Of a DNA stretch of 64,000 nucleotides, positions 4,573 through 23,017 are shown one piece after another; the stretch's first letter is position 1; each line of letters opens with the position of its first letter. The notes beneath the pieces were generated by a model. The model saw nothing but the letters and a program-made list of their open reading frames with translations. It searched no databases and had not been told where the DNA came from. The stretch covers positions 266-64,265 of the forward strand of contig CAYHGA010000003.1 in the NCBI GenBank assembly GCA_964356225.1, written 5' to 3'. The DNA comes from an uncultured Gammaproteobacteria bacterium. Lineage in GTDB: Bacteria > Patescibacteriota > Microgenomatia > CAZETR01 > Amesbacteraceae. Both the position numbers and the translations under genes were made by a program.

Positions 4573-5929
4573 TTCATCTATTTCTGAAATTGCAGCTAAA
4601 TATCGCTCAGGTGAAATTTCCCCAGTGGACGTTATCAATGAATGCTTTAAAAACATCGAAAAGCACAATTCAACCTTAAACGCTTTTATTACAATTTGTG
4701 ATAAACAAAAAGTTCTTGACCAAGCCAAACTTATAAAATTTGTTACGCCACTATCCGGGATTCCTTATGTCTTAAAAGATGCTTATGTTACCCAGGGCCT
4801 CAGGACAACGGCTGCCTCAAAAATTTTGGAGAATTATGTTCCCGACTATAACGCCACCGTTGTGGAAAAACTAACCCAAGCTGGAGCAATTTTAATCGGC
4901 AAAACCAACATGGACGTCTGGGGTCACGGAGCCAGTTCGGAAAACACGGATTTCGGCCCAGTCAAAAATCCTTGGGATCAATCGCGGGTAGCCGGCGGTT
5001 CCTCCGGAGGTGCGGCCGTAGCTGTATCAGTCCGGATGGCTATGTTTGCTATTGGCGAAGACACGGGCGGATCGATCAGAAACCCTGCTGGTTGGTGCGG
5101 AATATCGGGATTGAAGGTCACATATGGCCGGGTCAGCCGGTATGGTGCAATTGCTTATGCCTCGTCTTTAGACACCGTTGGTCCCATGGCCAAAAGTTCT
5201 CGGGATTTAGCAATTATTTTGGAACAAATTGCCGGGATTGATCCATACGATGCTACCTCCTCACCCGTTGAAGTTCCTAAATATTCTGAAGATTTAAACA
5301 CAGATTTAAAAAAAATAAAAATCGGGATCCCGTTGGAATTAAATTCTCAAATCAAAGAAGCGGTAATAAAATTAAAAGAACTGGGGGCCGAGGTTGTGGA
5401 CATTTCCTTGCCTATGCTCAAATATGCCGTGTCTGTATATTATTTAATCGCCCCATCTGAAACTAGTTCAAATTTAGCCAGATATGATGGGATCAGATAT
5501 GGAACTGGTAGAGAAAACTTTACTCAAGAGAGTATGCGCAGAATTATAATCGGCACATATGCCCTATCAGCTGGTTATTATGATGCATATTACAAAAAAG
5601 CCCAGGCAGCCAGAACCAAAATAATTGGTGACTACAAAAAAGCGTTTACAAAGTGTGATGTGATTATTATGCCAATATCACCATCTATGGCTCCAAAATT
5701 AGGCGAGCTAATTTCCGACCCGGTCAAAAATATGTTGACAGATATGTATGCCGTCACCGCAAATATTTCCGGCATTCCCTCCTTGGCTGTTCCCTGTGGA
5801 TTTGACGAGGGAATGCCGGTAGGGTTTCAGATTCAGGGACCGATGTTTTCAGAAGAACTCCTTTTGCGTTTGGGTCACAGTTATCAGCAAGCAACCGACT
5901 GGCATGTTCGCAAACCGCAACTTTCTTAA
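4559..5929 (+). CDS. gatA: Glu-tRNA(Gln) amidotransferase subunit A (amidase signature family)
   Basis: Amidase signature GGSSGGAAVAV..GEDTGGSIR, about 456 aa. Confidence 0.9.
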   Translation: MMLLDSSISEIAAKYRSGEISPVDVINECFKNIEKHNSTLNAFITICDKQKVLDQAKLIKFVTPLSGIPYVLKDAYVTQGLRTTAASKILENYVPDYNATVVEKLTQAGAILIGKTNMDVWGHGASSENTDFGPVKNPWDQSRVAGGSSGGAAVAVSVRMAMFAIGEDTGGSIRNPAGWCGISGLKVTYGRVSRYGAIAYASSLDTVGPMAKSSRDLAIILEQIAGIDPYDATSSPVEVPKYSEDLNTDLKKIKIGIPLELNSQIKEAVIKLKELGAEVVDISLPMLKYAVSVYYLIAPSETSSNLARYDGIRYGTGRENFTQESMRRIIIGTYALSAGYYDAYYKKAQAARTKIIGDYKKAFTKCDVIIMPISPSMAPKLGELISDPVKNMLTDMYAVTANISGIPSLAVPCGFDEGMPVGFQIQGPMFSEELLLRLGHSYQQATDWHVRKPQLS

Positions 5930-7115
5930 ACTCTGGGTGTCCCAGATGTTATCTCAAGTGAGCATAAACATCATGAATTTTTACGTTGTAACCCGCATTT
6001 TTTCCCTAACCAGCTCTACCACTGCCGTATCGCTGATGTGGATTGCCGGAGCTTTGCCCTGTCTGCTTTTTGCCCCATTCTCCGGCCCGGTCGTGGACGG
6101 CGTCAGTAAACGCAAGTCCATGATTGTCACTAATTTGCTTCAAGCTGCCAGCATCTCCCTCCTCTTTTTTGTTTCTAAGCCCTTCTCTTTTTATTCCGTG
6201 GTCTTTTTGTACTGGTTCTTTGACCAAATCTATATGCCCAGTCAGCAAGCCGCTATTCCCCAGTTAGTGGACAAGAAATTATTACCTGCGGCCAACGGCC
6301 TATTTTTACTCACCCAACAAGCCTCATTACTGGTGGGGTTTGGCTTGGGAGGCCTGCTCATCACCACTCTCGGCAATACTATCACCATCGCTTTTGCCAC
6401 TCTCAATTTAATTATTGCTGCCATTGCGGTCTTTTTCCTGCCCCACGACGCCCCCAAAACGGGATTGCGGGACAAAAGCCCGCTCAAATTCTGGAAAGAT
6501 CTCTCTGTCGGTTACAAATTCATCAAAGACCACCGTGTTGTCATGCTTCCCTTACTTCTAATCGTCTGTACCCAAGTCTTCATTTCCATCACCACAGTTA
6601 TTTTGCCCACCTATACCCACTCCGTTTTGCACATGCAGTTTAGCCGGGCCGCTGTCATGCTAATAGTCCCTGGAGCCCTTGGCGCCCTTTTAATGACCTA
6701 TTTAATTCCCAGGTTTCTCAAACGCTACCGTAAAAAAGATCTTATTCAAGCAGGACTGGGAATCGGAGGAACTGTCCTTTTGCTCCTGTCCGTTATTAAA
6801 TGGTTTCCCTTCGGCCAATTGCTAATCGCCATTCTGGCCGCCATTGGCTTAGGAGTTTCTATCGCCGCCATCACCGTTCCCGCCCAAACTCTGGTTCAGG
6901 AAAAAACTCCCACCTGGATCCGCGGCCGGGTCTATAGCCAGCTTAATTTCCTGATGATTATGGCCACCGCCCTGCCTTTGTTTATCGTCGCCTCGCTTGC
7001 CGACGCCTTAGGAGTTGTCACCATTATGGCCACTTTCGGAATTTTGTTATTAGCCGTTTTTATTTTTATCCGCAAGAAAGGAGACTATGTCCTGGCAAAC
7101 GGTTTTGGGATTTGA
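5904..7115 (+). CDS. multi-pass membrane protein, MFS-like transporter
   Basis: About 12 hydrophobic segments. It is inserted between gatA and gatB. Confidence 0.5.
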   Translation: MFANRNFLKLWVSQMLSQVSINIMNFYVVTRIFSLTSSTTAVSLMWIAGALPCLLFAPFSGPVVDGVSKRKSMIVTNLLQAASISLLFFVSKPFSFYSVVFLYWFFDQIYMPSQQAAIPQLVDKKLLPAANGLFLLTQQASLLVGFGLGGLLITTLGNTITIAFATLNLIIAAIAVFFLPHDAPKTGLRDKSPLKFWKDLSVGYKFIKDHRVVMLPLLLIVCTQVFISITTVILPTYTHSVLHMQFSRAAVMLIVPGALGALLMTYLIPRFLKRYRKKDLIQAGLGIGGTVLLLLSVIKWFPFGQLLIAILAAIGLGVSIAAITVPAQTLVQEKTPTWIRGRVYSQLNFLMIMATALPLFIVASLADALGVVTIMATFGILLLAVFIFIRKKGDYVLANGFGI

Positions 7116-8292
7116 AGTCCACATTGAGCTCTCTACCGCCTCAAAAATGTTTTGCGGTTGTCCTGCAGATCATTTCGGCAAAGCTCCTAATACCCAAGTC
7201 TGCCCGGTTTGTTTGGGCTTGCCCGGAGCTCTTCCGGTCCCCAACGCCCGCGCCATCGAGTGGTGCGTCAAGTTAGGTCTAGCTCTAGGCTGCGACATAA
7301 ATCTTTTCTCTAAATTTGACCGCAAAAATTATTTTTACCCTGATCTGCCCAAAGGCTATCAAATCAGTCAGTATGACCTTCCCTTTTGCAAAAATGGTCA
7401 GCTTCTTGGTCATAAAGTCACCCGGGTGCACCTGGAAGAAGACACCGGCAAACTTCAGCATTCCGGTTCCGAAACTCTCATCGATTTTAATAGAAGCGGC
7501 GTACCCTTAGTCGAAATTGTCACCGGCCCGGATTTTATTTCTTCGGATGACGGAATCCTATTTTTAAAAGAAGTCCAAGCTATCGTCAGAGCTTTAGGTA
7601 TATCCAGCGCTGATATGGAGAAGGGATCGATGCGTTTGGAGGCGAATATTTCAATCAGACGATCAGGCTTATCTGACCTTCCGAATTATAAAGTCGAGAT
7701 AAAAAATGTTAATTCTTTCAGATTTATAAAAAAAGCAATTGATTTTGAAGTAGCTCGGCAAATTCAATTACTTGAAGCGGGTCAAACCCCGGTTCAGGAA
7801 ACCCGCGGCTTCAAAGAATCCACAGGAGAAACTGTCAGTCAGCGTCTCAAAGAAGAAGCCAACGATTACCGTTATTTCCCGGAACCGGACATTCCCCCGC
7901 TTCAATTCACTAAACTGCAAATCGAAGTCTGGCGTTCTGAACTTCCGGCACTCCCGGCTCAAGTTCGCCAAGAGCTTATTACAAAATATCAACTATCGCC
8001 CCAATACGCCGTGATCATAAGTAGCGACCAGAGCATGTATGTCCAGTTTCTGAAAAATCCCTCCAAAGCCACAGCCGATGCCTTGGTCAATAAACGGCCA
8101 TTACAAACCGGCTCAACCGTCAAAATTGACCCCGAAGTAGTAAGCCGAATTTTAGCCGCTAATCCCAAAGCCGTGGCCGATTTTAAATCCGGCAAACAGC
8201 AAGCTCTCTTCTTCCTCATCGGCCAGATCAAAAAAGAACTAGGCGATATTGACATAGCATTGACACAAATGATGATCAGTGACATAGTATAG
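7087..8292 (+). CDS. gatB: Asp/Glu-tRNA amidotransferase subunit B
   Basis: The N-terminus GFEVHIEL...CGCP...CPVCLGLPGALP is characteristic of GatB. Confidence 0.85.
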   Translation: MSWQTVLGFEVHIELSTASKMFCGCPADHFGKAPNTQVCPVCLGLPGALPVPNARAIEWCVKLGLALGCDINLFSKFDRKNYFYPDLPKGYQISQYDLPFCKNGQLLGHKVTRVHLEEDTGKLQHSGSETLIDFNRSGVPLVEIVTGPDFISSDDGILFLKEVQAIVRALGISSADMEKGSMRLEANISIRRSGLSDLPNYKVEIKNVNSFRFIKKAIDFEVARQIQLLEAGQTPVQETRGFKESTGETVSQRLKEEANDYRYFPEPDIPPLQFTKLQIEVWRSELPALPAQVRQELITKYQLSPQYAVIISSDQSMYVQFLKNPSKATADALVNKRPLQTGSTVKIDPEVVSRILAANPKAVADFKSGKQQALFFLIGQIKKELGDIDIALTQMMISDIV

Positions 8293-13983: not shown

Positions 13984-14003
13984 AACTACTATAACCAAAT
14001 AAA

Positions 14004-15092
14004 GTGATCAAAGCGCTGGCAGTATTAATCATCTTGATTCTCTCCCTTCTAATTATACGTCGAGTAGTCCTCCGTCGGGAAGCAACCAGCCAAGTAACTC
14101 CTACTCCTCAAACCTCCCAGCCATCTAAATTTACCTTTAAGAACGCAAAGCCTTCTCCTGCTCCCCAAACCAAATTTACCGCTGCCAATCCCTTCGGCGT
14201 CATGATTTCGGGAGACTCTTCGCAAATCAAAGCCCAGACGGCCAAAAAATTGGGAGCAGTGTATTACCGGCCCATTTCAGTTTTCTTGGATAAATGGTCT
14301 GGAACATGTGCAGAATGTGATGCGGCAGTCAGCGGGGGGTTAAAACTTGTTTTGACGGTTAGAAATAACAACGGAGGTCCACAAAATCCTACAACCCCGC
14401 CTACAGATTTGAATACCTATAAAACCAAGTTATCTCAAGTCGTGGACAAATACAAACCTGAAGTATTGATTATCGAAAACGAGGAGAATTCCGCCGCTCT
14501 TTTTTATAACGGAACGGTTCAACAGTATTTACAAGAACTAAAAGCCGGTTGTGAAGTCGCTCACCAAAAAGGTATTAAATGTGCCAACGGCGGTTTAGTA
14601 AGTTCTTTAGTTGTGTTTCTGGTATCAGAAAACTATAAGGCCAACGGAGATACAAATAAGGCAGATGAGTATTTGGATCGCGCTCTGATCGGCGCAAAAC
14701 AACAGTTAATTTCGCAGGTTAATTCAAAAAAAGGCCAAGAACAGATTACCAAAGGCAAAGAACTCTTGGCTGGCTACAAAACCGCAGGGGCAGATTTTAT
14801 GAACTTTCACTGGTATACAGCTGACATCGAAGCTTTAGGTGAGGCAGTAGGTTATTTACGAGCCGCTTCAGGATTGCCGATCATGACTAATGAAGTTGGC
14901 CAACAAGCCAACACCGACCCAAACCAAGTATCAAACGTTATGCAAAAGATAGTTAATTTAGGTCTACCGTACGCATTATGGTTTAGTATGGATACTAATC
15001 CTCCAAATGGAGCCAGAGCGCTAAACGAAACCAACGGCACTCTTCGTCCCAATGGCGAAGCTTACGCCGAATTTATCCACTCCAACTATTAA
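14004..15092 (+). CDS. membrane-anchored secreted protein, possible glycoside-hydrolase-like domain
   Basis: N-terminal signal anchor, Pro/Thr-rich linker and an (IENEEN)-containing globular domain. No firm family assignment. Confidence 0.4.
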   Translation: MIKALAVLIILILSLLIIRRVVLRREATSQVTPTPQTSQPSKFTFKNAKPSPAPQTKFTAANPFGVMISGDSSQIKAQTAKKLGAVYYRPISVFLDKWSGTCAECDAAVSGGLKLVLTVRNNNGGPQNPTTPPTDLNTYKTKLSQVVDKYKPEVLIIENEENSAALFYNGTVQQYLQELKAGCEVAHQKGIKCANGGLVSSLVVFLVSENYKANGDTNKADEYLDRALIGAKQQLISQVNSKKGQEQITKGKELLAGYKTAGADFMNFHWYTADIEALGEAVGYLRAASGLPIMTNEVGQQANTDPNQVSNVMQKIVNLGLPYALWFSMDTNPPNGARALNETNGTLRPNGEAYAEFIHSNY

Positions 15093-15096
15093 ATCC

Positions 15097-15260
15097 TTGT
15101 GAACGTTTTTAATAAAATTCGAACTCATTTTAAACAAAAGTTGGCTCGAACTTCTTTTTAATGAATCGGCGGCTCTCGGCGAATTTGAATTTGGTCTTTA
15201 GGGCGCTCGCAACGGGCGGGGGCGTTGCGAGCGCCCCACCTTGCGAATCTTCGATTTCTT
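15097..15260. repeat. composite repeat R1 (AT-rich module + module b/c + 14-bp perfect GC hairpin 15201-15235)
   Basis: Positions 15097-15140 resemble the start of R2 (gtgaacgttttt..attcgaac). Positions 15140-15205 are an approximately 65-bp direct repeat of 19831-19896 with 3 mismatches. The hairpin is GGGCGCTCGCAACG-GGCGGGG-CGTTGCGAGCGCCC. Confidence 0.8.
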
Positions 15261-15344
15261 TTTTGGTGATCCCGCTAGTACCTTAAACAGACTTGGAATA
15301 TGCTTATTTGTTTGGGCTAAAAAATGCATAATAAAGTACATCAA

Positions 15345-16379
15345 CTATTTTTCTTTTAATACGTAATAACTTGCTTTGCCTTTGCCTTTTCTGCTGATTA
15401 AACCCAGCTCTATTAATTTCTTAATATCCAGTGCTCTAGTCGCCTTTGCCCGATCAACTAATTTAGCATAATCACGGTGAGCGATAAATCCTTTCTCTCT
15501 TATAAATTCAAGGATTTTTAAATGATAGGGTTGCAGCTGAGTTTCTGGATTTATTCCAACCTCTGGAAGCATTTTTTGAACTCTTAAAAGTTCGTCAATA
15601 ATTCCTTCCGTAAAATATTCCATCCAATCTGTAAAATCAATTTTATCTGCCAATTCATAATAATTGCCAAATTCTCCAATAGTTTGAAAATATTTACTAA
15701 CATTTTTGTTATAGTAATTCTCAAAACTAAACAGGTTAAATGTATTGAGTCCCATTTCAGCCAGTAATACCTTTGTGGCAAGACGAGTTGCCCTGCCATT
15801 TCCATCCATAAAAGGATGGATTATTACCATTTGCTTGTGAAAAATCCCAGCTAAAATAAGCGGATCAATTTTATCTTTATTGCTATTTATAAATTTAATT
15901 AGATCTTCTAAAAGTTTTCTTACATCTTTCGTATCAGGAGGCAAATAAATAACCTTTCTGGTCCTAGGATCATTTACAACTACTGGTTTGTCTCTTAATT
16001 TTCCAGATTCAAATTTAGGTAGTAATTCCTTTGTAATCTGTTCATGGATTTTTAGAATAAGAGCAAGAGTTAATCTTATTTGCTCTTTTTCAAGCTTTTC
16101 ATTTAAGTCTTGAAGTGCATGGTTGTAGTTTAAAACTTCTTTCTCACTATCCCTAATATGTTCAGGTTTTAATTTAAGAATTTTTTTTACTTCAGTTAAA
16201 GGTAGAGGGTTACCTTCGATACTGGTTGAGGCATAAGTTGAAACCGCTCTTGCAACTTTTTCGAATTCTAATAAGACAACATGAGGAAATCTTTTATCGT
16301 TTAATTCGTTCACTAGAGTATTAATTCTCTTAATATTAGATAGGAGACGATCCGTAATGGTGTATTTTGGCTGAAACAT
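15345..16379 (-). CDS. Fic/DOC family protein (AMPylase-like), class II with N-terminal inhibitory motif
   Basis: Fic motif HPFMDGNGRATR. The N-terminal STSIEGN matches the (S/T)xxxE(G/N) inhibitory motif. Confidence 0.85.
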   Translation of the reverse strand: MFQPKYTITDRLLSNIKRINTLVNELNDKRFPHVVLLEFEKVARAVSTYASTSIEGNPLPLTEVKKILKLKPEHIRDSEKEVLNYNHALQDLNEKLEKEQIRLTLALILKIHEQITKELLPKFESGKLRDKPVVVNDPRTRKVIYLPPDTKDVRKLLEDLIKFINSNKDKIDPLILAGIFHKQMVIIHPFMDGNGRATRLATKVLLAEMGLNTFNLFSFENYYNKNVSKYFQTIGEFGNYYELADKIDFTDWMEYFTEGIIDELLRVQKMLPEVGINPETQLQPYHLKILEFIREKGFIAHRDYAKLVDRAKATRALDIKKLIELGLISRKGKGKASYYVLKEK

Positions 16380-16391
16380 ATACTCTAATTA

Positions 16392-16559
16392 TAGACGAAT
16401 ATTAGACGATTTACAAGGAGTAAAATTTCGATCCTCGTGACCAAGATGGATCAGAAATCCGTCCTCAATATTCCCCTCAAGCATTTCAAATTCATACCTT
16501 TTATCTTCCTCCTCATAAAGTTCCGGTCCCCTCAAAGGAAGCTCGGAAGGAACTCTCAT
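16392..16559 (-). CDS. small ORF (about 55 aa) immediately upstream of fic, possibly co-transcribed
   Basis: Manual translation gives MRVPSELPLRGPELYEEEDKRYEFEMLEGNIEDGFLIHLGHEDRNFTPCKSSNIRL. Its stop lies 13 nt before the fic start. It is shorter than the ORF-track cutoff. Confidence 0.3.
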
Positions 16560-16594
16560 TTAACTTCTTTTATCTATTTTTAACAATTGTTAAC

Positions 16595-16706
16595 TTGTGA
16601 ACGTTTTTGAACAAATTCGAACGTATTTCAAGTCAAACTGTTAGCTCGCCCCGCCTTGGCGAGGCTCGCAATGTGAGCGCGGCGCCCCCCACCCGCCGCG
16701 CTTCCG
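16595..16706. repeat. repeat R2, left arm of a 112-bp perfect inverted repeat flanking the MFS gene
   Basis: Positions 16595-16706 are the exact reverse complement of 18199-18310. It contains GC hairpins (GCGCGGCG-CCCCCCACC-CGCCGCGC). Confidence 0.9.
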
Positions 16707-16772
16707 TTATTTTTTGCGCGCTCGATTCTTCTCTCACTTCGTTCGAGATATGATTTTTGATATAGTGATTGT

Positions 16773-17972
16773 ATGCTAAACAACTTTAAGGGCATTACTT
16801 GGCGTTATTACGTTTTTTCTTTTCTTGCGGGATTATCTTTTTATACCGCCGCCTTAATCCCATTTTATACTAATTGGGGACACATTTCACTAACTCAAGT
16901 CCAATTCCTACAAGCATGGTTAATGTTTTGGGCTTTTGTTTTGGAAGTACCAACTGGGGTTATTGCAGATAAGTTCGGAAGAAAATATTCAGTTGCTTTA
17001 GGTTGTCTACTAACTTTCTTCTCGTTTTTGATATATGGCTCGTTTCCTAATTTTTCAGCTTTTCTCGTTGCAGAATTTTTGGCAGCTGCTGGTATGGCTC
17101 TAATGTCTGGAGCAAGTGAAGCTCTGCTATACGATTCTTTAAAAGATGAAAATAACGAAAGCAAATTTAAAAATATTTTTGGTCGGTCATTCTCTATTGG
17201 TCAAATAGCGGCAATTATTTCTGCGCCTGTTGGTGGTTTTATCGCATCTAAGTACGGTTTAAATGCTCCGATGTTGTTTACAGCGTTTCCAGTTTTAATT
17301 GCTTCCATAATTTTAGTAACTGCAAAAGAGCCATCACAAAAATATTCAAAATCAGAAAAGAAAAATTATTTAGATATTGCGAGAAACGGCGTATCTTCTT
17401 TTATTCATCATAAAGTACTAAGGTCATTGGCTTTCAACGGAATTTTGGTTTATACAGGGGTTTACTTTTTAGTATGGCTCTATCAACCCATACTACAAAA
17501 TTTGGGTGTTGCAATAATATTTTTCGGATTTATCAGAGCGTTATTCTCTTTGTCAGGAATGGTTTTTAACCATGACTTACAGCTTATTGAAAAACTATTT
17601 GGATCAAATAAACAATTTTTTAATATAACCGCAGTTTTAACTACGATATCCTTATTATTAGTTGCCGTATTCCCAAATATTATTACAGTTTTAATGGCGA
17701 TTGTTTTATTGGGTGGATTAGGTCAGGCAAGATTTACTGCATTGAATTCGTATATGAACCACCACATAGTCTCAGAACAACGCGCGACAACGTTATCAAC
17801 TATTTCAATGTTAAATAGAATTGTTCTAATTGCATTAAATCCTCTGATTGGATTCATGGCAGATCAATCAATAAGAGGAGCATTTCTATTTCTAGCATTT
17901 TTACCATTATTGGCCATTATCTTTGTTCCTATAGATTTGTATAAAAACACTACAGAGACGGTAACTTCATAA
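16773..17972 (+). CDS. MFS transporter
   Basis: 399 aa with about 12 TM helices and MFS-like motifs (GVIADKFGRK). Confidence 0.75.
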   Translation: MLNNFKGITWRYYVFSFLAGLSFYTAALIPFYTNWGHISLTQVQFLQAWLMFWAFVLEVPTGVIADKFGRKYSVALGCLLTFFSFLIYGSFPNFSAFLVAEFLAAAGMALMSGASEALLYDSLKDENNESKFKNIFGRSFSIGQIAAIISAPVGGFIASKYGLNAPMLFTAFPVLIASIILVTAKEPSQKYSKSEKKNYLDIARNGVSSFIHHKVLRSLAFNGILVYTGVYFLVWLYQPILQNLGVAIIFFGFIRALFSLSGMVFNHDLQLIEKLFGSNKQFFNITAVLTTISLLLVAVFPNIITVLMAIVLLGGLGQARFTALNSYMNHHIVSEQRATTLSTISMLNRIVLIALNPLIGFMADQSIRGAFLFLAFLPLLAIIFVPIDLYKNTTETVTS

Positions 17973-18198
17973 GTTTGACGTAAGAAAAATTATTTCTATT
18001 GTTTTTGTAAAATTATTTTTGTATATTGTAAGTGTACTCAACTTTTTCAGGTCGTCTTTTTTAATGGCCGTTCTGGACAATTTAAGGCGACTTAAGTTGA
18101 GTACAACCAGAGCGGCCATTTGAGTTTAGTAATAAGTACTTTAAAATTTTTGCGTTTTTCTTTTTCTGCTTTCAGCGGAATGTTCGAGCCGACTTTTT

Positions 18199-18310
18199 CG
18201 GAAGCGCGGCGGGTGGGGGGCGCCGCGCTCACATTGCGAGCCTCGCCAAGGCGGGGCGAGCTAACAGTTTGACTTGAAATACGTTCGAATTTGTTCAAAA
18301 ACGTTCACAA
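18199..18310. repeat. repeat R2', right arm of the 112-bp inverted repeat
   Basis: Reverse complement of 16595-16706. It is preceded at 18160-18198 by a diverged module-b copy (aaaagtcggctcgaac). Confidence 0.9.
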
Positions 18311-18407
18311 TTTTGGAAATGGAAGCAGAAGTGGGGGCAGCGCTGGCTGCGCCCCCCTCCGCAGACAGCGCTGCAAAGGCCAAATCCAAATTCGCCGAGA
18401 GCCGCCG
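18305..18407. repeat. repeat R3, left arm of a 103-bp perfect inverted repeat flanking the recombinase gene
   Basis: Positions 18305-18407 are the exact reverse complement of 19858-19960. It contains the hairpin GCAGCGCTGGCTGCG-CCCCCCTC-CGCAGACAGCGCTGC and overlaps R2' by 6 bp. Confidence 0.9.
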
Positions 18408-18462
18408 TAAAAAAAGCATGAAGAAAAACGCAAAAATTAAAGAACTTTAAGGAATATAAAAA

Positions 18463-20004
18463 ATGATTAAATATATTGCTTACTGCCGAAAATCCACAGA
18501 TGAAAAAGATAAACAGGTTTTATCTATTGAAGCGCAAATTGCCGAACTCAAGGAGTTTGCCAAAAGAGAGGGCTTAACGGTCTCTGAATTCATTACAGAA
18601 GCCAAGACTGCTAAGATTCCGGGGAGAGTACAATTTGCTGAAATCTTAAAAAGAATAGAGAAAGGACAAGCCAACGGAATATTATCGTGGCACCCCGACC
18701 GTCTCGCTAGAAATTCGATAGATGGCGGGAAAATAATTTATCTTTTGGATACTGGCAAACTCCTTGATTTAAAATTCCCCTCGTTTTGGTTTGAGTCCAC
18801 ACCACAAGGCAAATTCATGCTCTCAATCGCCTTTGGCCAATCAAAATATTATGTCGATAATCTGTCCGAAAATGTAAAGCGAGGAAACAGACAAAAACTT
18901 CGTAATGGTGTCTGGCCCAGTAAAGCACCGTATGGCTATATCAATAACCCCAAAACGAGGGGAATAGATATTGATGAAGAAAAATCAAAAATTGTTAAAA
19001 AATCATTTCAGCTTTTTGCTGATGGAAGTATTTCTTTTACGGCTATTTCTCAATTTATGTTTAAGTTTGGGATTAAGCGAGAAGGAGAAAAACCTGTAAA
19101 AGTTGGTCAAGTTAAAAATATGCTTGCCAATAAATTTTATCTGGGAATTCTCAAATACGCCGGAGAATATTATCAAGGTTCACACAAAACCTTTATCAGC
19201 AAAAAGCTGTTTGACGAAGTTCAAAAACAAGTTGAGAAAATCGAGCGACCAAGACAAAAAGGCCACAATTTCGCTTTTGCAGGTCTGGCGACCTGCGGCG
19301 AATGCGGCGCCGCAATCACGGCGGAACAACATATAAAGAAATACAAAAACGGCACCGGCCAAACTTTTATCTATTACCGCTGTACTAAAAAGTTGAAAGC
19401 CTGTACGCAAAAATATATTTCCGAATCAGATACAGAGGAGCAGTTAAGAAAAATTGTTCGTGATTGCGGCTTGCATGAAGGCTGGGAACCGTATTTTGAA
19501 AAATGGATCACCGAAGCCGAAGAAAAAGACAAACTGACCGCCGAAACGGAAAGTAAAAAACTCGATACCCAAACCCAAGAAACAGAAATCAAATTAAACC
19601 GATTGCTTGACGGCTACCTCGACCAAGTTATTGAGCCGGATATTTACAAACAAAAGAAAAATGAATTATTTGACGAAAAACTGAAGTTAGAGGAGAATAA
19701 ATCACAAATTGAGAAAAATGGAAGTTGTTGGCTCGAACCTATGAGGGAATTCGTAAATTGCGCCTTGCAGGCGCAAAAAATCGCGCGCGCAAAAAATAAT
19801 TGCCATGATTTATCAATCATGGCAAAAAAAGTCGGCTCGAACTTCTTTTTAATGAATCGGCGGCTCTCGGCGAATTTGGATTTGGCCTTTGCAGCGCTGT
19901 CTGCGGAGGGGGGCGCAGCCAGCGCTGCCCCCACTTCTGCTTCCATTTCCAAAATTGTGAGGCGGGTGGGACTCGAACCCACGACCCTTAGCTTAAAAGG
20001 CTAG
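18463..20004 (+). CDS. large serine recombinase (resolvase/invertase-type N-domain + recombinase domain + zinc ribbon)
   Basis: Catalytic-serine region YCRKSTDEKDKQ, recombinase domain and zinc ribbon CGECG...CTKK. The ORF has no stop until it has read through repeat R3' and into tRNA-Lys (C-terminal ...VGLEPTTLSLKG), so the true C-terminus is uncertain, roughly 19830-19900. Confidence 0.85.
   Translation: MIKYIAYCRKSTDEKDKQVLSIEAQIAELKEFAKREGLTVSEFITEAKTAKIPGRVQFAEILKRIEKGQANGILSWHPDRLARNSIDGGKIIYLLDTGKLLDLKFPSFWFESTPQGKFMLSIAFGQSKYYVDNLSENVKRGNRQKLRNGVWPSKAPYGYINNPKTRGIDIDEEKSKIVKKSFQLFADGSISFTAISQFMFKFGIKREGEKPVKVGQVKNMLANKFYLGILKYAGEYYQGSHKTFISKKLFDEVQKQVEKIERPRQKGHNFAFAGLATCGECGAAITAEQHIKKYKNGTGQTFIYYRCTKKLKACTQKYISESDTEEQLRKIVRDCGLHEGWEPYFEKWITEAEEKDKLTAETESKKLDTQTQETEIKLNRLLDGYLDQVIEPDIYKQKKNELFDEKLKLEENKSQIEKNGSCWLEPMREFVNCALQAQKIARAKNNCHDLSIMAKKVGSNFFLMNRRLSANLDLAFAALSAEGGAASAAPTSASISKIVRRVGLEPTTLSLKG
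19858..19960. repeat. repeat R3', right arm of the 103-bp inverted repeat
   Basis: Reverse complement of 18305-18407. It is preceded by module b at 19824-19857 and overlaps the 3' end of tRNA-Lys at 19958-19960. Confidence 0.9.
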
Positions 20005-20030
20005 TGCTCTACCAACTGAGCTACCGCCCC
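19958..20030 (-). tRNA. tRNA-Lys (anticodon UUU)
   Basis: The minus-strand sequence GGGGCGGTAGCTCAGTTGGTAGAGCACTAGCCTTTTAAGCTAAGGGTCGTGGGTTCGAGTCCCACCCGCCTCA folds as a cloverleaf with anticodon loop CTTTTAA. No CCA is encoded. Confidence 0.8.
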
Positions 20031-20058
20031 TCACTGAACTTATCAAGAGCATTTTATA

Positions 20059-20316
20059 TCAAACTTGTCTCTTTATAAACTCACGACCTCTAAACGACTT
20101 AAGTTGCTTTTCACGAGACAACGCCTCGTTTCTAGACCCAAAAACTTCTTTATAAACAAGACTCCAATTTCCACGATTGATTTTAGTATAACTTCTCTTA
20201 CTTGAAATCAATTCACCATTGTGTCTTTTAAGTCGCTTTTCCAAATTACTGGTCTGGCCTATATAGATTTTTCCACTTTTGTTCTTAATAACATAAACTA
20301 CAAATACTTTCTCCAT
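20059..20316 (-). CDS. small GIY-YIG nuclease, YhbQ/UPF0213-like
   Basis: 85 aa with VYVIKNKSGKIYIGQTSNLEKRLKRHN (GIY-YIG). The start codon abuts the shared CTTTTAAGCT anticodon-loop segment of the disrupted tRNA-Lys copy. Confidence 0.8.
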   Translation of the reverse strand: MEKVFVVYVIKNKSGKIYIGQTSNLEKRLKRHNGELISSKRSYTKINRGNWSLVYKEVFGSRNEALSREKQLKSFRGREFIKRQV

Positions 20317-20343
20317 AGCTTAAAAGTCCGCCAGCTGGCGGAT

Positions 20344-20365
20344 CTACCAACTGAGCTACCGCCCC
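20344..20365 (-). pseudogene. 5' fragment (nt 1-22) of a second, disrupted tRNA-Lys copy
   Basis: The first 22 nt are identical to the 5' acceptor and D-arm of tRNA-Lys(UUU). Then a 16-bp palindrome TCCGCCAGCTGGCGGA replaces tRNA nt 24-31, followed by the conserved CTTTTAAGCT and the GIY-YIG ATG. Confidence 0.65.
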
Positions 20366-20417
20366 TCACTGAACTTATCAAGAGCATTTTATATCAAACT
20401 TGTCTCTTTATAAACTC
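20344..20417. repeat. 74-bp perfect direct repeat (copy B) of 20009-20082 (copy A): tRNA-Lys 5' part plus 52 bp of upstream flank
   Basis: The string ctaccaactgagctaccgcccctcactgaacttatcaagagcattttatatcaaacttgtctctttataaactc occurs twice, bracketing the GIY-YIG gene. Confidence 0.9.
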
Positions 20418-20500
20418 TCTCTCGCTTGAAGCGGCCAATCAGAGTTTGAAATCGTTGTCGCGTGGATATTAAAAAACTGATAAAATTGACCTATCCATCC

Positions 20501-20572
20501 GGCTCGATCGTCTAACGGCTAGGACGCGGGGCTTTCATCCCCGCAATCGGGGTTCGATTCCCCGTCGAGTCA
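20501..20572 (+). tRNA. tRNA-Glu (anticodon UUC)
   Basis: GGCTCGATCGTCTAACGGCTAGGACGCGGGGCTTTCATCCCCGCAATCGGGGTTCGATTCCCCGTCGAGTCA; anticodon loop CTTTCAT. Confidence 0.8.
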
Positions 20573-20575
20573 CCC

Positions 20576-21211
20576 ATGAAAGTCTTTCTTGTCAGGCACG
20601 GGCGGTCCGCAGACCGTGAAGCTAAAGTTCGCCAATCATTAAACACTCCTCTTTCCCAATCCGGGATCAATCAGGCACAAGCCGTAGTCGACAGACTCAA
20701 ATCTGAGGAAATTGACATCATTTATTCCAGTCCCTATCTCAGAGCCGCGCAAACAGCTGAAATAATATCTAAAGGGCTAAATCTTCCCCTGCAAGTGCAT
20801 GATCTTACCAGAGAATTAGCCCGGCCCTCTATGGACGGTTTAGATTATCAGGATCCTTTGAATCTCGAGTTTATGAATCAGCTTAAAGAAAACCTTTTTA
20901 ACATAGATTGGAAGTTTCCTGCAGATAGTGAATCATTCAGAGATGTTGCGGCCAGGGCTAGTAAGTTCAGAGATTTTCTTATATCAAGCCCCTTAGAGCA
21001 AAATATATTAGTGATCTCCCACGGTTTTCAAATCACCTGTTTTATTGGTGTGTGTATATTAGGAGATAATTACGATCCACTTACGTTTATGAAACTTGTA
21101 CGCTCTTTATCTATCGAAAACACTTCCATTTCAGAAATGGAATATTTCCCCGAAGATAAACGTTGGAAAGTAAAGCTCATTAATGATCATTTACACATCC
21201 AGGGTATATGA
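20576..21211 (+). CDS. histidine phosphatase family protein (phosphoglycerate-mutase-like)
   Basis: N-terminal RHG motif (LVRHGRS) and the SHG region. Confidence 0.7.
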   Translation: MKVFLVRHGRSADREAKVRQSLNTPLSQSGINQAQAVVDRLKSEEIDIIYSSPYLRAAQTAEIISKGLNLPLQVHDLTRELARPSMDGLDYQDPLNLEFMNQLKENLFNIDWKFPADSESFRDVAARASKFRDFLISSPLEQNILVISHGFQITCFIGVCILGDNYDPLTFMKLVRSLSIENTSISEMEYFPEDKRWKVKLINDHLHIQGI

Positions 21212-21705
21212 AAATCCTAGGTATAGATCCTGGCACAGCCACTACAGGATTTGGAGTGATTGAAACCACTCCGAACGGCTATCTTCTCCTGGATTACGGA
21301 CTGGTGTCCACTGACAAAAAACAAGCCCATGGCCTCCGCTTGGACCTCATCTATAAAGGCATTTCCGGGGTTATCACCAAGCACTCGCCAGAAGTTGTAG
21401 CCATCGAACGCCTGTTTTTCGCCACCAACGCCTTAACTGCCATTGCCGTAGGTCAGGCCATCGGGGTCATTAAATTAGCCGTCCACCATGCCGGCCTGCC
21501 CATTTTTGATTACGCTCCCATGCAAGTCAAAATGATTATTACAGGCTCCGGTAAAGCCGACAAGAAAGAAATCAAATCCACTATCAAAAAAATATTTAAA
21601 ATCCGGGAAAAAAGGGGGCAAAAAGCCCATTTTGACAATTCCGCCGACGCCTTAGCCATCGCCATTTGCCATGCTAAAAAAACTTCTGCTGTTGCTCGCC
21701 CTTAG
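21208..21705 (+). CDS. ruvC: Holliday junction resolvase RuvC
   Basis: MKILGIDPGTATTGFGVIE and the catalytic acidic residues. Confidence 0.85.
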   Translation: MKILGIDPGTATTGFGVIETTPNGYLLLDYGLVSTDKKQAHGLRLDLIYKGISGVITKHSPEVVAIERLFFATNALTAIAVGQAIGVIKLAVHHAGLPIFDYAPMQVKMIITGSGKADKKEIKSTIKKIFKIREKRGQKAHFDNSADALAIAICHAKKTSAVARP

Positions 21706-23017
21706 TGTTGGCGTTGTTAGGGCTTACGATCCCGCTTCAGTTCCCAATAACCGGGTCGGCGTGCATATATTAGATCCCAACGAAATAAACGACGCGGCTA
21801 AACTAATCAACTCCTCTGGTGGAGACTGGGGTTATGTCACGATTCCTATCAGAAGCAACGACCGGGATCGGGACAAATGGTTAAAATTTTTCCAGAATGC
21901 CCGCCGGCTGCACGTAATTCCCATTATCCGGCTGGCCACCTATCCCAATTCCGATGTTTGGGTCGAGCCTAACTCTGCAGATTTAATCGACTTCGCTAAT
22001 TTCCTCAATGACATGCCCTGGCCTACTAACAACCGTTACCTTATCCTCTTTAATGAACCAAATCATGCTAATGAATGGGGCGGCAACCTCAACCCCTATA
22101 ACTACGCTACTCTTTTAATCGATGCTCACCGCATATTCAAGGATCGCTCATCAGATTTTTTTCTCATTTCAGCGGGACTGGACATGTCTTCCCCCAATTC
22201 GTCCACATCTATGGATGCCCGCCAGTATTATCACCTTATGGGTGTCTGGCAGCCGCTCTGGAAGTCTGCGCTGGATGGTTTTGCAGTCCATGTCTACCCT
22301 AATTCCCGGGCCGGAATCGCTAGCTATAAATACGAACCGCTCGACAAGCGGCCGATTTTTATTACAGAAACAGGTTGGGTTGGCCAGCCGGATTTATACC
22401 CTTGGGCTCTTTCCCAAGTTTGGACGGAACCAAACATTGTGGCTGTAACTCCATTCGTTCTTTTCGCCGGAGCAGGGGAGTTCACCAAATTTTCTCTTCT
22501 TAACTCCCCCGCCTATTCCGGTCTGGTTGCCCTTCCCAAAATAGCCGGCAGTCCGCTCCTGGCAAACATTACTCTTTCTCCATCCTACTTTACTCCCGCC
22601 ACACCTCCAGAAACCATGTCGCAAATCTCCAAACTCTCCAAATTACTATCCGATTGGTTCAGCCGAACACACCAGCTTACTATCGGATCTACGACCATCG
22701 ATATTGAAATTGCTGACAACGAAACCAAGCGGGCCCAAGGCCTCTCAAATCGCGTTAGTCTACCGGACCAGTCCGGAATGTTATTTATCTTCCCCGAACC
22801 TGTCCGGCACAGTTTTTGGATGAAAGATATGAACTTCCCTCTGGATTTTATCTGGATTAAGAATGGCACAGCGATTCAACTATCAAAGGACGTTCCCTCC
22901 ACCCAACCCCCGGTCGTCCTTACTCCCGATGACCCTGTAGATCAAGTTTTAGAAGTCAACGCTGGATTTATAGACAAAAATGGTATAAAAGTAGGTGATG
23001 AAGTCCGAAGGAGGTGA
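21671..23017 (+). CDS. secreted GH5-like glycoside hydrolase fused to C-terminal DUF192 domain
   Basis: Signal peptide, an NEPN motif typical of GH5 clan A, and C-terminal GLSNR..GMLFIF..FWMKDMNFPLDFIWI (DUF192-like). Confidence 0.5.
   Translation: MLKKLLLLLALSVGVVRAYDPASVPNNRVGVHILDPNEINDAAKLINSSGGDWGYVTIPIRSNDRDRDKWLKFFQNARRLHVIPIIRLATYPNSDVWVEPNSADLIDFANFLNDMPWPTNNRYLILFNEPNHANEWGGNLNPYNYATLLIDAHRIFKDRSSDFFLISAGLDMSSPNSSTSMDARQYYHLMGVWQPLWKSALDGFAVHVYPNSRAGIASYKYEPLDKRPIFITETGWVGQPDLYPWALSQVWTEPNIVAVTPFVLFAGAGEFTKFSLLNSPAYSGLVALPKIAGSPLLANITLSPSYFTPATPPETMSQISKLSKLLSDWFSRTHQLTIGSTTIDIEIADNETKRAQGLSNRVSLPDQSGMLFIFPEPVRHSFWMKDMNFPLDFIWIKNGTAIQLSKDVPSTQPPVVLTPDDPVDQVLEVNAGFIDKNGIKVGDEVRRR

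Follow-up and report, generated by a model that had tools for sequence, protein, structure and literature searches.

How does a recombinase gene come to be enclosed by a long perfect inverted repeat, one arm of which lies within its own coding sequence and ends inside a tRNA gene? The question is raised by a 64,000-nucleotide (nt) stretch of contig CAYHGA010000003.1 (assembly GCA_964356225.1; hereafter the window), where a serine recombinase gene, rec, runs into tRNA-Lys. We consider positions 16595-19960, which include the repeat, to be one integrated mobile element that targets tRNA 3′ ends, is driven by a large serine recombinase (LSR) and belongs to a Patescibacteria-specific family with ends L and R, and we assign to this reading a probability of roughly 0.6. 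Below, R stands for the 103-nt repeat unit, L for a 112-nt unit, Rec for the recombinase and X for the sequence to the left of the distal L; a dot denotes directly joined units, a slash a junction with flanking sequence and a prime an inverted copy.

The exact reverse complementarity of positions 18305-18407 and 19858-19960, from which the preliminary description of the locus started, is reproduced by a repeat search and by blastn (103 nt, 100%, spacing 1450 nt), and the sole further copy of the R sequence in the window is partial (15136-15199). A second inverted pair, L, consists of 16592/5-16706 and 18199-18310/13 (112-115 nt, 99-100% identical; 100% in the version 16595-16706/18199-18310). 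As previously noted, the left R arm adjoins the neighboring repeat arm with an overlap of 6 nt by blastn (9 nt by the repeat search), the common 6 nt being TCACAA at 18305-18310. The order on the plus strand is X, L pointing rightwards, cargo, L and R pointing leftwards, rec and R pointing rightwards, and tRNA-Lys on the minus strand. The distal L arm (16595-16706, plus strand; repeat search, blastn) constitutes the left end of the element, with the attL-like junction X/L, and is followed by box a′ (TTATTTTTTGCGCGC..., 16707-16730, plus strand; repeat search), a T-rich tail after the second L hairpin that looks like an inward-facing terminator, and by the cargo gene, which encodes an MFS transporter of 399 amino acids (aa) (16773-17972, plus strand; open reading frame (ORF) call, Pfam MFS_1, 1.4e-29). 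The proximal L arm (18199-18310, minus strand; repeat search, blastn) and the left R arm (18305-18407, minus strand) are the two halves of an internal inverted R.L copy, whereas the right R arm (19858-19960, plus strand) is the right end, with the attR-like junction R/tRNA. The integration target, tRNA-Lys(ttt), occupies 19957-20030 on the minus strand (ARAGORN; Rfam, 19958-20030, 73 bits), and its last 3-4 nt are common to the right R arm. Three junctions have in common a 6-nt core, TTGTGA: X/L (16595-16600, plus strand), the inverted R.L (18305-18310, minus strand) and R/tRNA (19955-19960, plus strand).

The internal R.L copy (18199-18407) is flanked by inverted 18-nt 'up' boxes (AAGAAAAACGCAAAAATT), one towards the cargo (18145-18162, minus strand; repeat search, kept in relatives) and the other 25-42 nt upstream of the rec start codon (18421-18438, plus strand; kept down to relatives of 56% identity). 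It is also bracketed by perfect inverted 17-nt b boxes (AAAAAGTCGGCTCGAAC) at 18182-18198 (minus strand) and 19826-19842, which include the tRNA T-arm-like motif GGCTCGAAC.

This organization is not peculiar to the window. A search with the Rec protein yielded at least 7,937 matches at E<=1e-3, and 80 of 217 relatives found in species-representative genomes were retained, which together with the window make 81 loci; these relatives are 56-92% identical, and the best rec match in the searched collections is at 89-92%. All relatives come from metagenome-assembled genomes of Microgenomates/Patescibacteria in at least ten candidate classes, one genome being deposited as complete (CP011210, locus L032). 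The R pair surrounds the recombinase gene in 62 of the 81 loci and its arms are highly similar within elements, so that the repeat belongs to the recombinase, as had been supposed; the two arms of one element match at a median identity of 98.1% (18 of 58 pairs are perfect), compared with a mean of 58% for arms of different elements. An L pair adjoining the R pair and enclosing 0.6-5.7 kb of unrelated cargo was found in 43 of the 81 loci and both pairs in 33, many contigs ending at the repeats. Where enough sequence is available, an opposite-strand tRNA adjoins the right arm in 58 of 64 loci, with 21 isoacceptors represented. The cargo between the L arms differs locus by locus (among others, transporters, restriction-modification, Fic-type genes, glycosyltransferases), and the polarity of the cargo module is uniform in 43/43 loci: b and/or 'up' stand at the proximal L and neither ever stands at the distal L, with box a′ at the distal L in 28 of these 43 loci and at the proximal L in none. 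A metagenome scan aimed at the junction that a flipped rec would create returned 12 loci (L085-L096), all 12 being rec-less satellites at tRNA-Lys or tRNA-Glu 3′ ends with varied cargo; their form is tRNA/R′-13 nt-'up'-(structured motif)-cargo-a-L′/X, with L and R direct and without an internal R.L copy, which occurs only in rec-carrying members.

A scan of IMG/VR revealed no relatives of the element, and a literature search, given the incomplete coverage of the searchable literature, found no description of it. The perfect inverted repeat marks a widespread and apparently undescribed family of small Patescibacteria elements that insert exactly at tRNA 3′ ends and retain an additional inverted copy of their joined ends. 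That the repeat is an artefact of assembly, produced by a chimeric or fold-back join, is hardly credible: assemblers do struggle at this point, as shown by the many contigs of relatives that end within the left arm (L008, L012, L023, L037, L078, L082, L084), but the same architecture recurs in more than 60 assemblies from different groups and assemblers, CP011210 among them, and the repeats are element-specific. Several loci (L004, L009, L012, L016, L019, L023 and others) were deposited in 'uncultured Gammaproteobacteria', 'Pseudomonadales' or 'Saccharibacteria' bins from binchicken co-assemblies; they carry the Microgenomates-type element with Rec identity of 84-91%, which points to wrong labels on the bins or to misbinning of the contigs as the probable cause.

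The boundaries of the repeats point to the type of recombination involved. The sequences of paired R arms part immediately past GTGA (replaced in subfamilies by GTGC, GTGG, GTTG or GTAG), the final R bases agree with the tRNA side as well as with the L side, and in most of the 43 loci the distal L arm starts at that same GTGA, with X to its left not conserved. Such exact junctions with a very short common core are the pattern expected of conservative site-specific recombination, with X/L as attL and R/tRNA as attR. Only these two junctions are directly oriented, and 16595-19960 would therefore be the unit capable of excision. The earlier proposal that the recombinase could invert or excise the segment 18305-19960 accordingly holds in part: inversion is chemically allowed, whereas excision is not, the two sites of that segment being inverted. 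Reading of the sequence shows R.L to be an imperfect palindrome about GA, the two sides of which read ACCATTTTGGAAATCGAA and ACGTTTTTGAACAAATTCGAAC. The two halves share the inner motif ACNNTTTTGRA, and an outer TCGAA-like motif lies 3-4 nt further out in L, a shift that recalls the offset between attP and attB half-sites that Rutherford et al. (2013) reportedly described for large serine integrases. The TCGAA of the tRNA T-loop sits at the R-like distance; this spacing fits the half-site logic of LSRs and would explain the use of many tRNAs by one enzyme. A continuous R.L junction is present downstream of rec in L082, L084, L081 and L011.

We propose that Rec would recombine the joined ends R.L, as an attP-like site, with an attB composed of the last tRNA bases and the sequence downstream, the crossover probably falling within 2-4 nt around the discriminator and the first acceptor base pair (TTGTGA in the window). 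Integration would leave X/L on one side and R/tRNA on the other with the tRNA intact, and the whole L...R unit would be expected to excise. Autonomous, that is, rec-carrying, members keep a second, inverted R.L copy (18199-18407) between two 'up' boxes that face rec on one side and the structured motif and cargo on the other. The 103-nt repeat would thus consist of the R half of the internal copy and the true right end, and the 112-nt repeat of the L half and the true left end.

The product of rec (18463-20004, plus strand; 513 aa), described at first simply as a serine recombinase, is an LSR by its domains: Resolvase (Pfam, 2.9e-20, residues 5-151), Recombinase (PF07508, 1.7e-12, residues 172-259) and the zinc ribbon Zn_ribbon_recom (PF13408, 1.2e-9, residues 272-327). 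The motif YCRKSTDEKDKQ holds S11, which is nearly invariant among 37 homologues, WHPDRLARN is also found, and the cysteines C278, C281, C307 and C314 are invariant in the same comparison. The AF2 model is of moderate quality as a whole (mean pLDDT 64.7, pTM 0.33) and contains long helices at 339-386 and 392-419 (pLDDT 72-89); confidence is low from residue 437, the final strands are at 462-469 and residues 470-513 lack confident structure. Rec is at most 27% identical to LSRs of phages or plasmids and scores far under the NCBIfam cut-offs for CcrB and XisF, and the nearest solved structure is that of the SPbeta integrase.

The right R arm lies inside the rec ORF, and, as the preliminary description had it, no stop codon occurs until the arm has been crossed: the rec frame is open in 62/62 loci, against 19/62 and 24/62 for the other two frames. 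What ends 3-4 nt into tRNA-Lys, however, is the arm and not the ORF, for which an end 3 nt into the tRNA had been given; the ORF continues 48 nt into the tRNA, to a stop codon at 20002-20004. The R arms of satellites are likewise open in the rec frame (10/10), but are too closely related to the autonomous arms to be independent evidence on translation. When the C-terminus is traced by alignment of homologues, as had been suggested, none is found to stop before the arm, and the arms never occur outside the element family. The homologues can be aligned through ...KKVGSNFFLMNRRLSANLNFAFAALSAEGGAASAAP..SISKIV and diverge after it; beyond this point most tails enter reverse-complemented tRNA sequence, with GFEP, GIEP or GLEP motifs, and about 6 of 120 C-termini read ...NVFEQIRTYFK, which is the translation of L. 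Because the R end falls within the 3′ end of rec, the ORF always crosses the junction and stops in whatever follows, and because the element has no rec stop codon of its own, the tail of Rec is set by the sequence past the junction. Codon-position diversity indicates protein-type selection in rec up to about nt 1260 (window position 19722), equal conservation of all three codon positions in 19723-19842 and only a weak bias in the R arm part. Little protein-level constraint is visible in the tail, for which the R arm and the tRNA supply the code, and the folded part of Rec probably extends to around residue 470, some 15 nt into the R arm.

The even conservation of 19723-19842 over codon positions implies a constraint at the level of DNA. 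This portion of rec (19723-19857, plus strand, as the conserved stretch was delimited) holds two copies of the T-arm-like motif GGCTCGAAC, box a, a 26-nt palindrome denoted pal (19800-19825) and box b (19826-19842); all four copies of the motif in the window fall in parts of the element. On the minus strand, that of the tRNA, pal and the following TTATTTTTT score as an intrinsic terminator facing the tRNA, and the same T-rich box also follows the distal L. From these sequence features, the element appears to carry inward-facing terminators at both ends, which would make sense because the insertion cuts the tRNA gene off from its native downstream sequence.

The arms themselves contain the hairpins noted previously, each with a 15-nt stem and an 8-nt loop, although the loop, described then as poly-C, is rich in C only in the left arm, that of the right arm being rich in G. 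The hairpins, which had been likened in size to att sites, are not the att core: they lie at least 28 nt from the junction and flank the core, the arms diverging exactly after the terminal GTGA. Pairing in the R hairpin is maintained by compensatory changes. By explicit pair counting, there are 69 double changes compared with 26 in shuffles (reached in 0/500), and 76% of pairs form in the true register compared with 24-50% in slid-register controls; RNAalifold on the divergent R arms, where the register of the hairpin shifts, gave 3 pairs only. In L003, the same insertion of about 21 nt is present in the hairpin loop of both R arms (7396-7521 and 5831-5963), the two arms having changed together.

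The covariation of this hairpin, the terminator-like structures facing inwards at both element ends and the separation of the tRNA from its native downstream sequence could also be taken to mean that the arms act mainly at the level of RNA or transcription, as GC-rich insulators or processing signals for the tRNA 3′ end and the rec mRNA, and that their duplication provides each side of rec with a signal that both sides require. We consider this quite improbable, given that by sequence reading neither strand of the R hairpin carries a T-run, that conservation extends to some 60 nt of each arm outside the hairpin, up to the exact junction, and that the L pair and the satellites are left unexplained.

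The same core in inverted orientation at R.L and R/tRNA is the geometry for inversion by a serine recombinase, and this raises the possibility of a self-inverting switch of the Hin type, in which Rec would flip 18408-19857 via R.L at 18305 and R/tRNA at 19955. Such a flip would toggle rec between a state convergent with the tRNA and insulated by pal and a state co-directional with the tRNA and driven by tRNA read-through, and would change the C-terminal tail of Rec. Apart from the geometry, the very high identity of the arms within elements fits such a switch; the tRNA-proximal end after the flip would equal the R′-13 nt-'up' arrangement of all 12 satellites, and contig L084 shows the order rec-R.L-b-'up'-cargo-a-L′ that is expected after a flip. 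As in Hin, the recombinase gene lies between inverted recombination sites, and the enhancer within the recombinase coding sequence of Hin and Gin resembles the conserved stretch 19723-19857. However, L084 stops inside the left arm, so that the flank beyond is not covered, and could instead be a chain of modules like that in L081 (see below). In all 58 genomic loci with a tRNA, rec is convergent with it and the tRNA is upstream of rec in none, and none of the 12 loci from the scan for the flipped junction carries rec. Hin, Gin, Cin and Pin are proteins of about 190 aa with a C-terminal helix-turn-helix (HTH), act on 26-bp sites and occur in both orientations side by side, whereas Rec is a 513-aa LSR without the build of a small HTH-containing invertase, is present in one orientation beside tRNAs and scores 19.7 bits against the NCBIfam model of the Mpi invertase (cut-off 272). 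A switch is therefore unlikely, and flipping of rec must be rare, transient or selected against.

The existence of satellites of the form L-cargo-'up'′-13 nt-R, which have no internal copy, invites another historical scenario, namely that a rec segment with terminal repeats of its own (the 103-nt R arms or the 17-nt b boxes) landed in a simpler L...R satellite as a nested transposon, the large repeats being left over from that history and serving no function today. The perfect inverted b boxes that bound the rec block and a minimal L-b-15 nt-R unit at 15097-15269 are compatible with such an origin. We nonetheless deem it improbable: inverted sites with a non-palindromic core cannot give excision by a serine recombinase, and the architecture and polarity are kept down to 56% Rec identity with near-identical arms, which argues for ongoing function or homogenization. 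Moreover, no locus contains the R.R′ or L′.L junctions. A palindromic attP made of such junctions, with each module forming its own circle, was rejected because on the plus strand the core reads GA at X/L and TC at L′/R′, making the junctions inverted. Two further candidates were discarded, namely integration as a folded single strand with the arms pairing into duplex R.L, which on paper yields hairpin-capped chromosome ends, and insertion of the internal copy at pal and b as a pseudo-attB, for which the predicted junction order is unlike that observed.

We thus return to the single integrated element and to the role that its internal R.L copy could play. Our preferred guess, which is by analogy, is that it is a Rec-binding site in the control region between rec and cargo and mediates autoregulation as res does in Tn3; it could also be a joint for the exchange or chaining of modules, and inversion of the rec segment through it would be a rare event. 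That its arms stay nearly identical to the outer ends in the absence of visible flipping suggests gene conversion or frequent re-formation. The uniform polarity of the cargo module (43/43 loci) and the absence of rec from the 12 scanned loci speak against use of the internal R.L as a second place of integration.

This same observation is among several that weigh against the element as we read it, since a competent internal attP should also integrate, yet the polarity that would result was seen in 0/43 loci and rec in 0/12 targeted matches. Neither an empty site nor a circular form was observed directly in the searched collections, to which the genome of the window itself does not belong, and BLAST of flanks against flanks among the loci yielded only complex cases (L034/L037, L056, L070), none of them a clean empty site. 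The element contains no conserved extra gene and no directionality factor for recombination was identified, excision being assumed. The spacing of the outer motif makes R resemble a tRNA-type (attB-type) half-site more than an attP-type one, so that R.L departs from a canonical attP and the usual attP x attB logic may fail. The model also does not account for the origin of the internal copy or for arms that stay identical to the outer ends without visible flipping, and the regulatory role suggested for the copy is a guess from analogy.

On the cargo side of the internal copy, downstream of the 'up' box, lies a conserved motif of about 90 nt (18026-18120, minus strand) with a pseudoknot formed by helices P1, P2 and P3 and an alternative helix P4. 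In this motif 91% of cells are paired, with 205 double changes compared with 70 in shuffles (0/500), and P4 also covaries. It is found in the same position in L002, L006, L021, L032, L084, L086-L093 and others, rec-less satellites included. Rfam searches gave no match to the motif: at E<=1, the region 14000-22000 returned two tRNAs and two weak chance matches only, and the non-tRNA flank of L002 returned none. The motif could be an RNA leader or a small RNA, and the covariation of P4 suggests a terminator/antiterminator-type switch or, again, a small RNA. Small ORFs in the L arm (for example, 18092-18298) were rejected as genes, their frames shifting between loci. It is conceivable, although we would rate the chance as rather low, that the internal copy and the pseudoknotted motif are working parts of a mechanism of serine-recombinase transposition or cassette exchange that has not yet been described; for example, the copy could be a docking site where Rec swaps or strings cargo at tRNA genes, with the RNA controlling or assisting the process.

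Comparison of closely related loci indicates mobility of the elements and exchange of modules, with recent turnover of cargo. Over 5.7 kb that include the tRNA, R and the 'up' box, satellites L086 and L091 match at 99.3% identity, after which the cargo is unlike; L082 and L030 have cargo that is 99.3% identical and a 201-nt R.L that is 100% identical, with rec genes at 87%; and the window and L083 carry the element at orthologous tRNA-Lys genes with different cargo. Locus L081 (JGI contig Ga0434945_000381) is a chain of the form tRNA-Lys/R2′ REC2 R2.L cargo L′.R′ rec R.L3, followed by type I restriction-modification cargo, in which two recombinases, 45% identical to each other, face outward around one common cargo module.

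The minimal unit of the window mentioned above is a rec-less miniature derivative of 173 nt (15097-15269, plus strand) that consists of the first ~41 nt of L, box b, a 15-nt linker and an R arm and ends in GGTGA. Its L-like start is GTGAACGTTTTTAATAAAATTCGAAC, positions 15143-15187 are identical to 19834-19878, and its hairpin is a different, covarying variant. It follows immediately on the stop codon of ORF 14004-15092. No adjoining tRNA was predicted, and the bases that come next (TCCCGCTAGTACC) may be a remnant. Between the miniature and the main element, 15345-16559 on the minus strand holds a gene of the Fic/DOC family (344 aa; Pfam Fic, 7.7e-19) together with an ORF of 56 aa; the two may form a toxin-antitoxin-like pair within an island that element ends delimit. 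Relative to positions 5420-7827 of L083, the window from about 15094 to 20575 (from the miniature element to tRNA-Glu) is inverted, and the sequence downstream of tRNA-Glu in L083 matches the window from 15093 down to 12670 at 76.7% identity, the endpoints being the L end of the miniature and the 3′ end of tRNA-Glu. A simple attP x attB inversion was considered and rejected for this case, the expected R′ beside tRNA-Glu being missing and the junctions misfitting.

On the far side of the right junction, a 75-nt perfect direct repeat (20008-20082 and 20343-20417), made of the 5′ part of tRNA-Lys and the sequence upstream, brackets an ORF for a GIY-YIG nuclease (20059-20316, minus strand; Pfam 1.5e-16), and 20320-20365 resembles the 5′ half of tRNA-Lys broken by the palindrome TCCGCCAGCTGGCGGA; in L083, tRNA-Lys and tRNA-Glu are adjacent without this insert. 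In L034/L037, L056 and L070, some distal L arms have truncated R ends or rec fragments of 15-150 nt before them, and the flank to the left of L in L034 is an inverted homologue of the L037 flank past the tRNA; these oddities look like rearrangements or deletions at element joints.

Among the closest known systems are the large serine integrases of phages and integrative and conjugative elements (phiC31, Bxb1, A118/LI, SPbeta SprA), which likewise combine resolvase, recombinase and zinc ribbon domains, have a long helical, coiled-coil-like insertion of the kind that the model of Rec may contain, and recombine at junctions that share few bases, with no long direct repeats. The element differs from them in targeting many tRNA 3′ ends rather than one site, in having a rec ORF that crosses the att site without a stop codon of its own, in its extra inverted copy of the joined ends and in the lack of an evident directionality factor. 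Genomic islands integrated in tRNA genes, including tycheposons, are also small, carry variable cargo and have satellites without a recombinase. These islands, however, mostly use tyrosine recombinases and are flanked by direct repeats of the tRNA 3′ part, whereas here X/L shares TTGTGA alone with R/tRNA, there is no tRNA fragment at 16560-16600, and two pairs of inverted repeats are present. Tn4451 (TnpX) and Tn5397 (TndX) are small elements that are also moved by an LSR via a joined-ends form, and the GA dinucleotide at their crossover would match the GA that closes GTGA; they have other targets, are not specific to tRNAs, and lack both an inverted copy of the ends in the interior and a read-through ORF. 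The res site of Tn3/gamma-delta resembles the internal copy in being a serine-recombinase site between divergent units, where binding also represses transcription, but res sites are direct repeats that resolve cointegrates, whereas the copies in the element are inverted. Integrons use the tyrosine recombinase IntI and cassettes bounded by attC, in contrast to a serine recombinase and cargo bounded by inverted L arms of more than 100 nt. Judging from sequence, the element would appear to be of the type of genomic islets with a serine integrase at tRNA genes, the new features being the targeting of multiple tRNAs, the read-through ORF, the internal copy of the ends, the satellites and the structured motif.

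For the biology of recombinases, the family represents a clade of serine integrases that target a universal feature, the acceptor/T-arm end of tRNA, with an ORF that has no stop codon inside the element and a conserved architecture of duplicated ends, and enzymes that recognize a short, conserved tRNA-like target are of interest as tools for genome engineering. Patescibacteria, the Candidate Phyla Radiation, have tiny genomes and few recognized routes of gene exchange, and an element family as abundant as this one, with varied cargo that differs even among near-identical genomes, may be a main vehicle for the flux of their accessory genes. If the internal copy is indeed a docking site for cargo, the family would amount to gene capture of a new type in this radiation.

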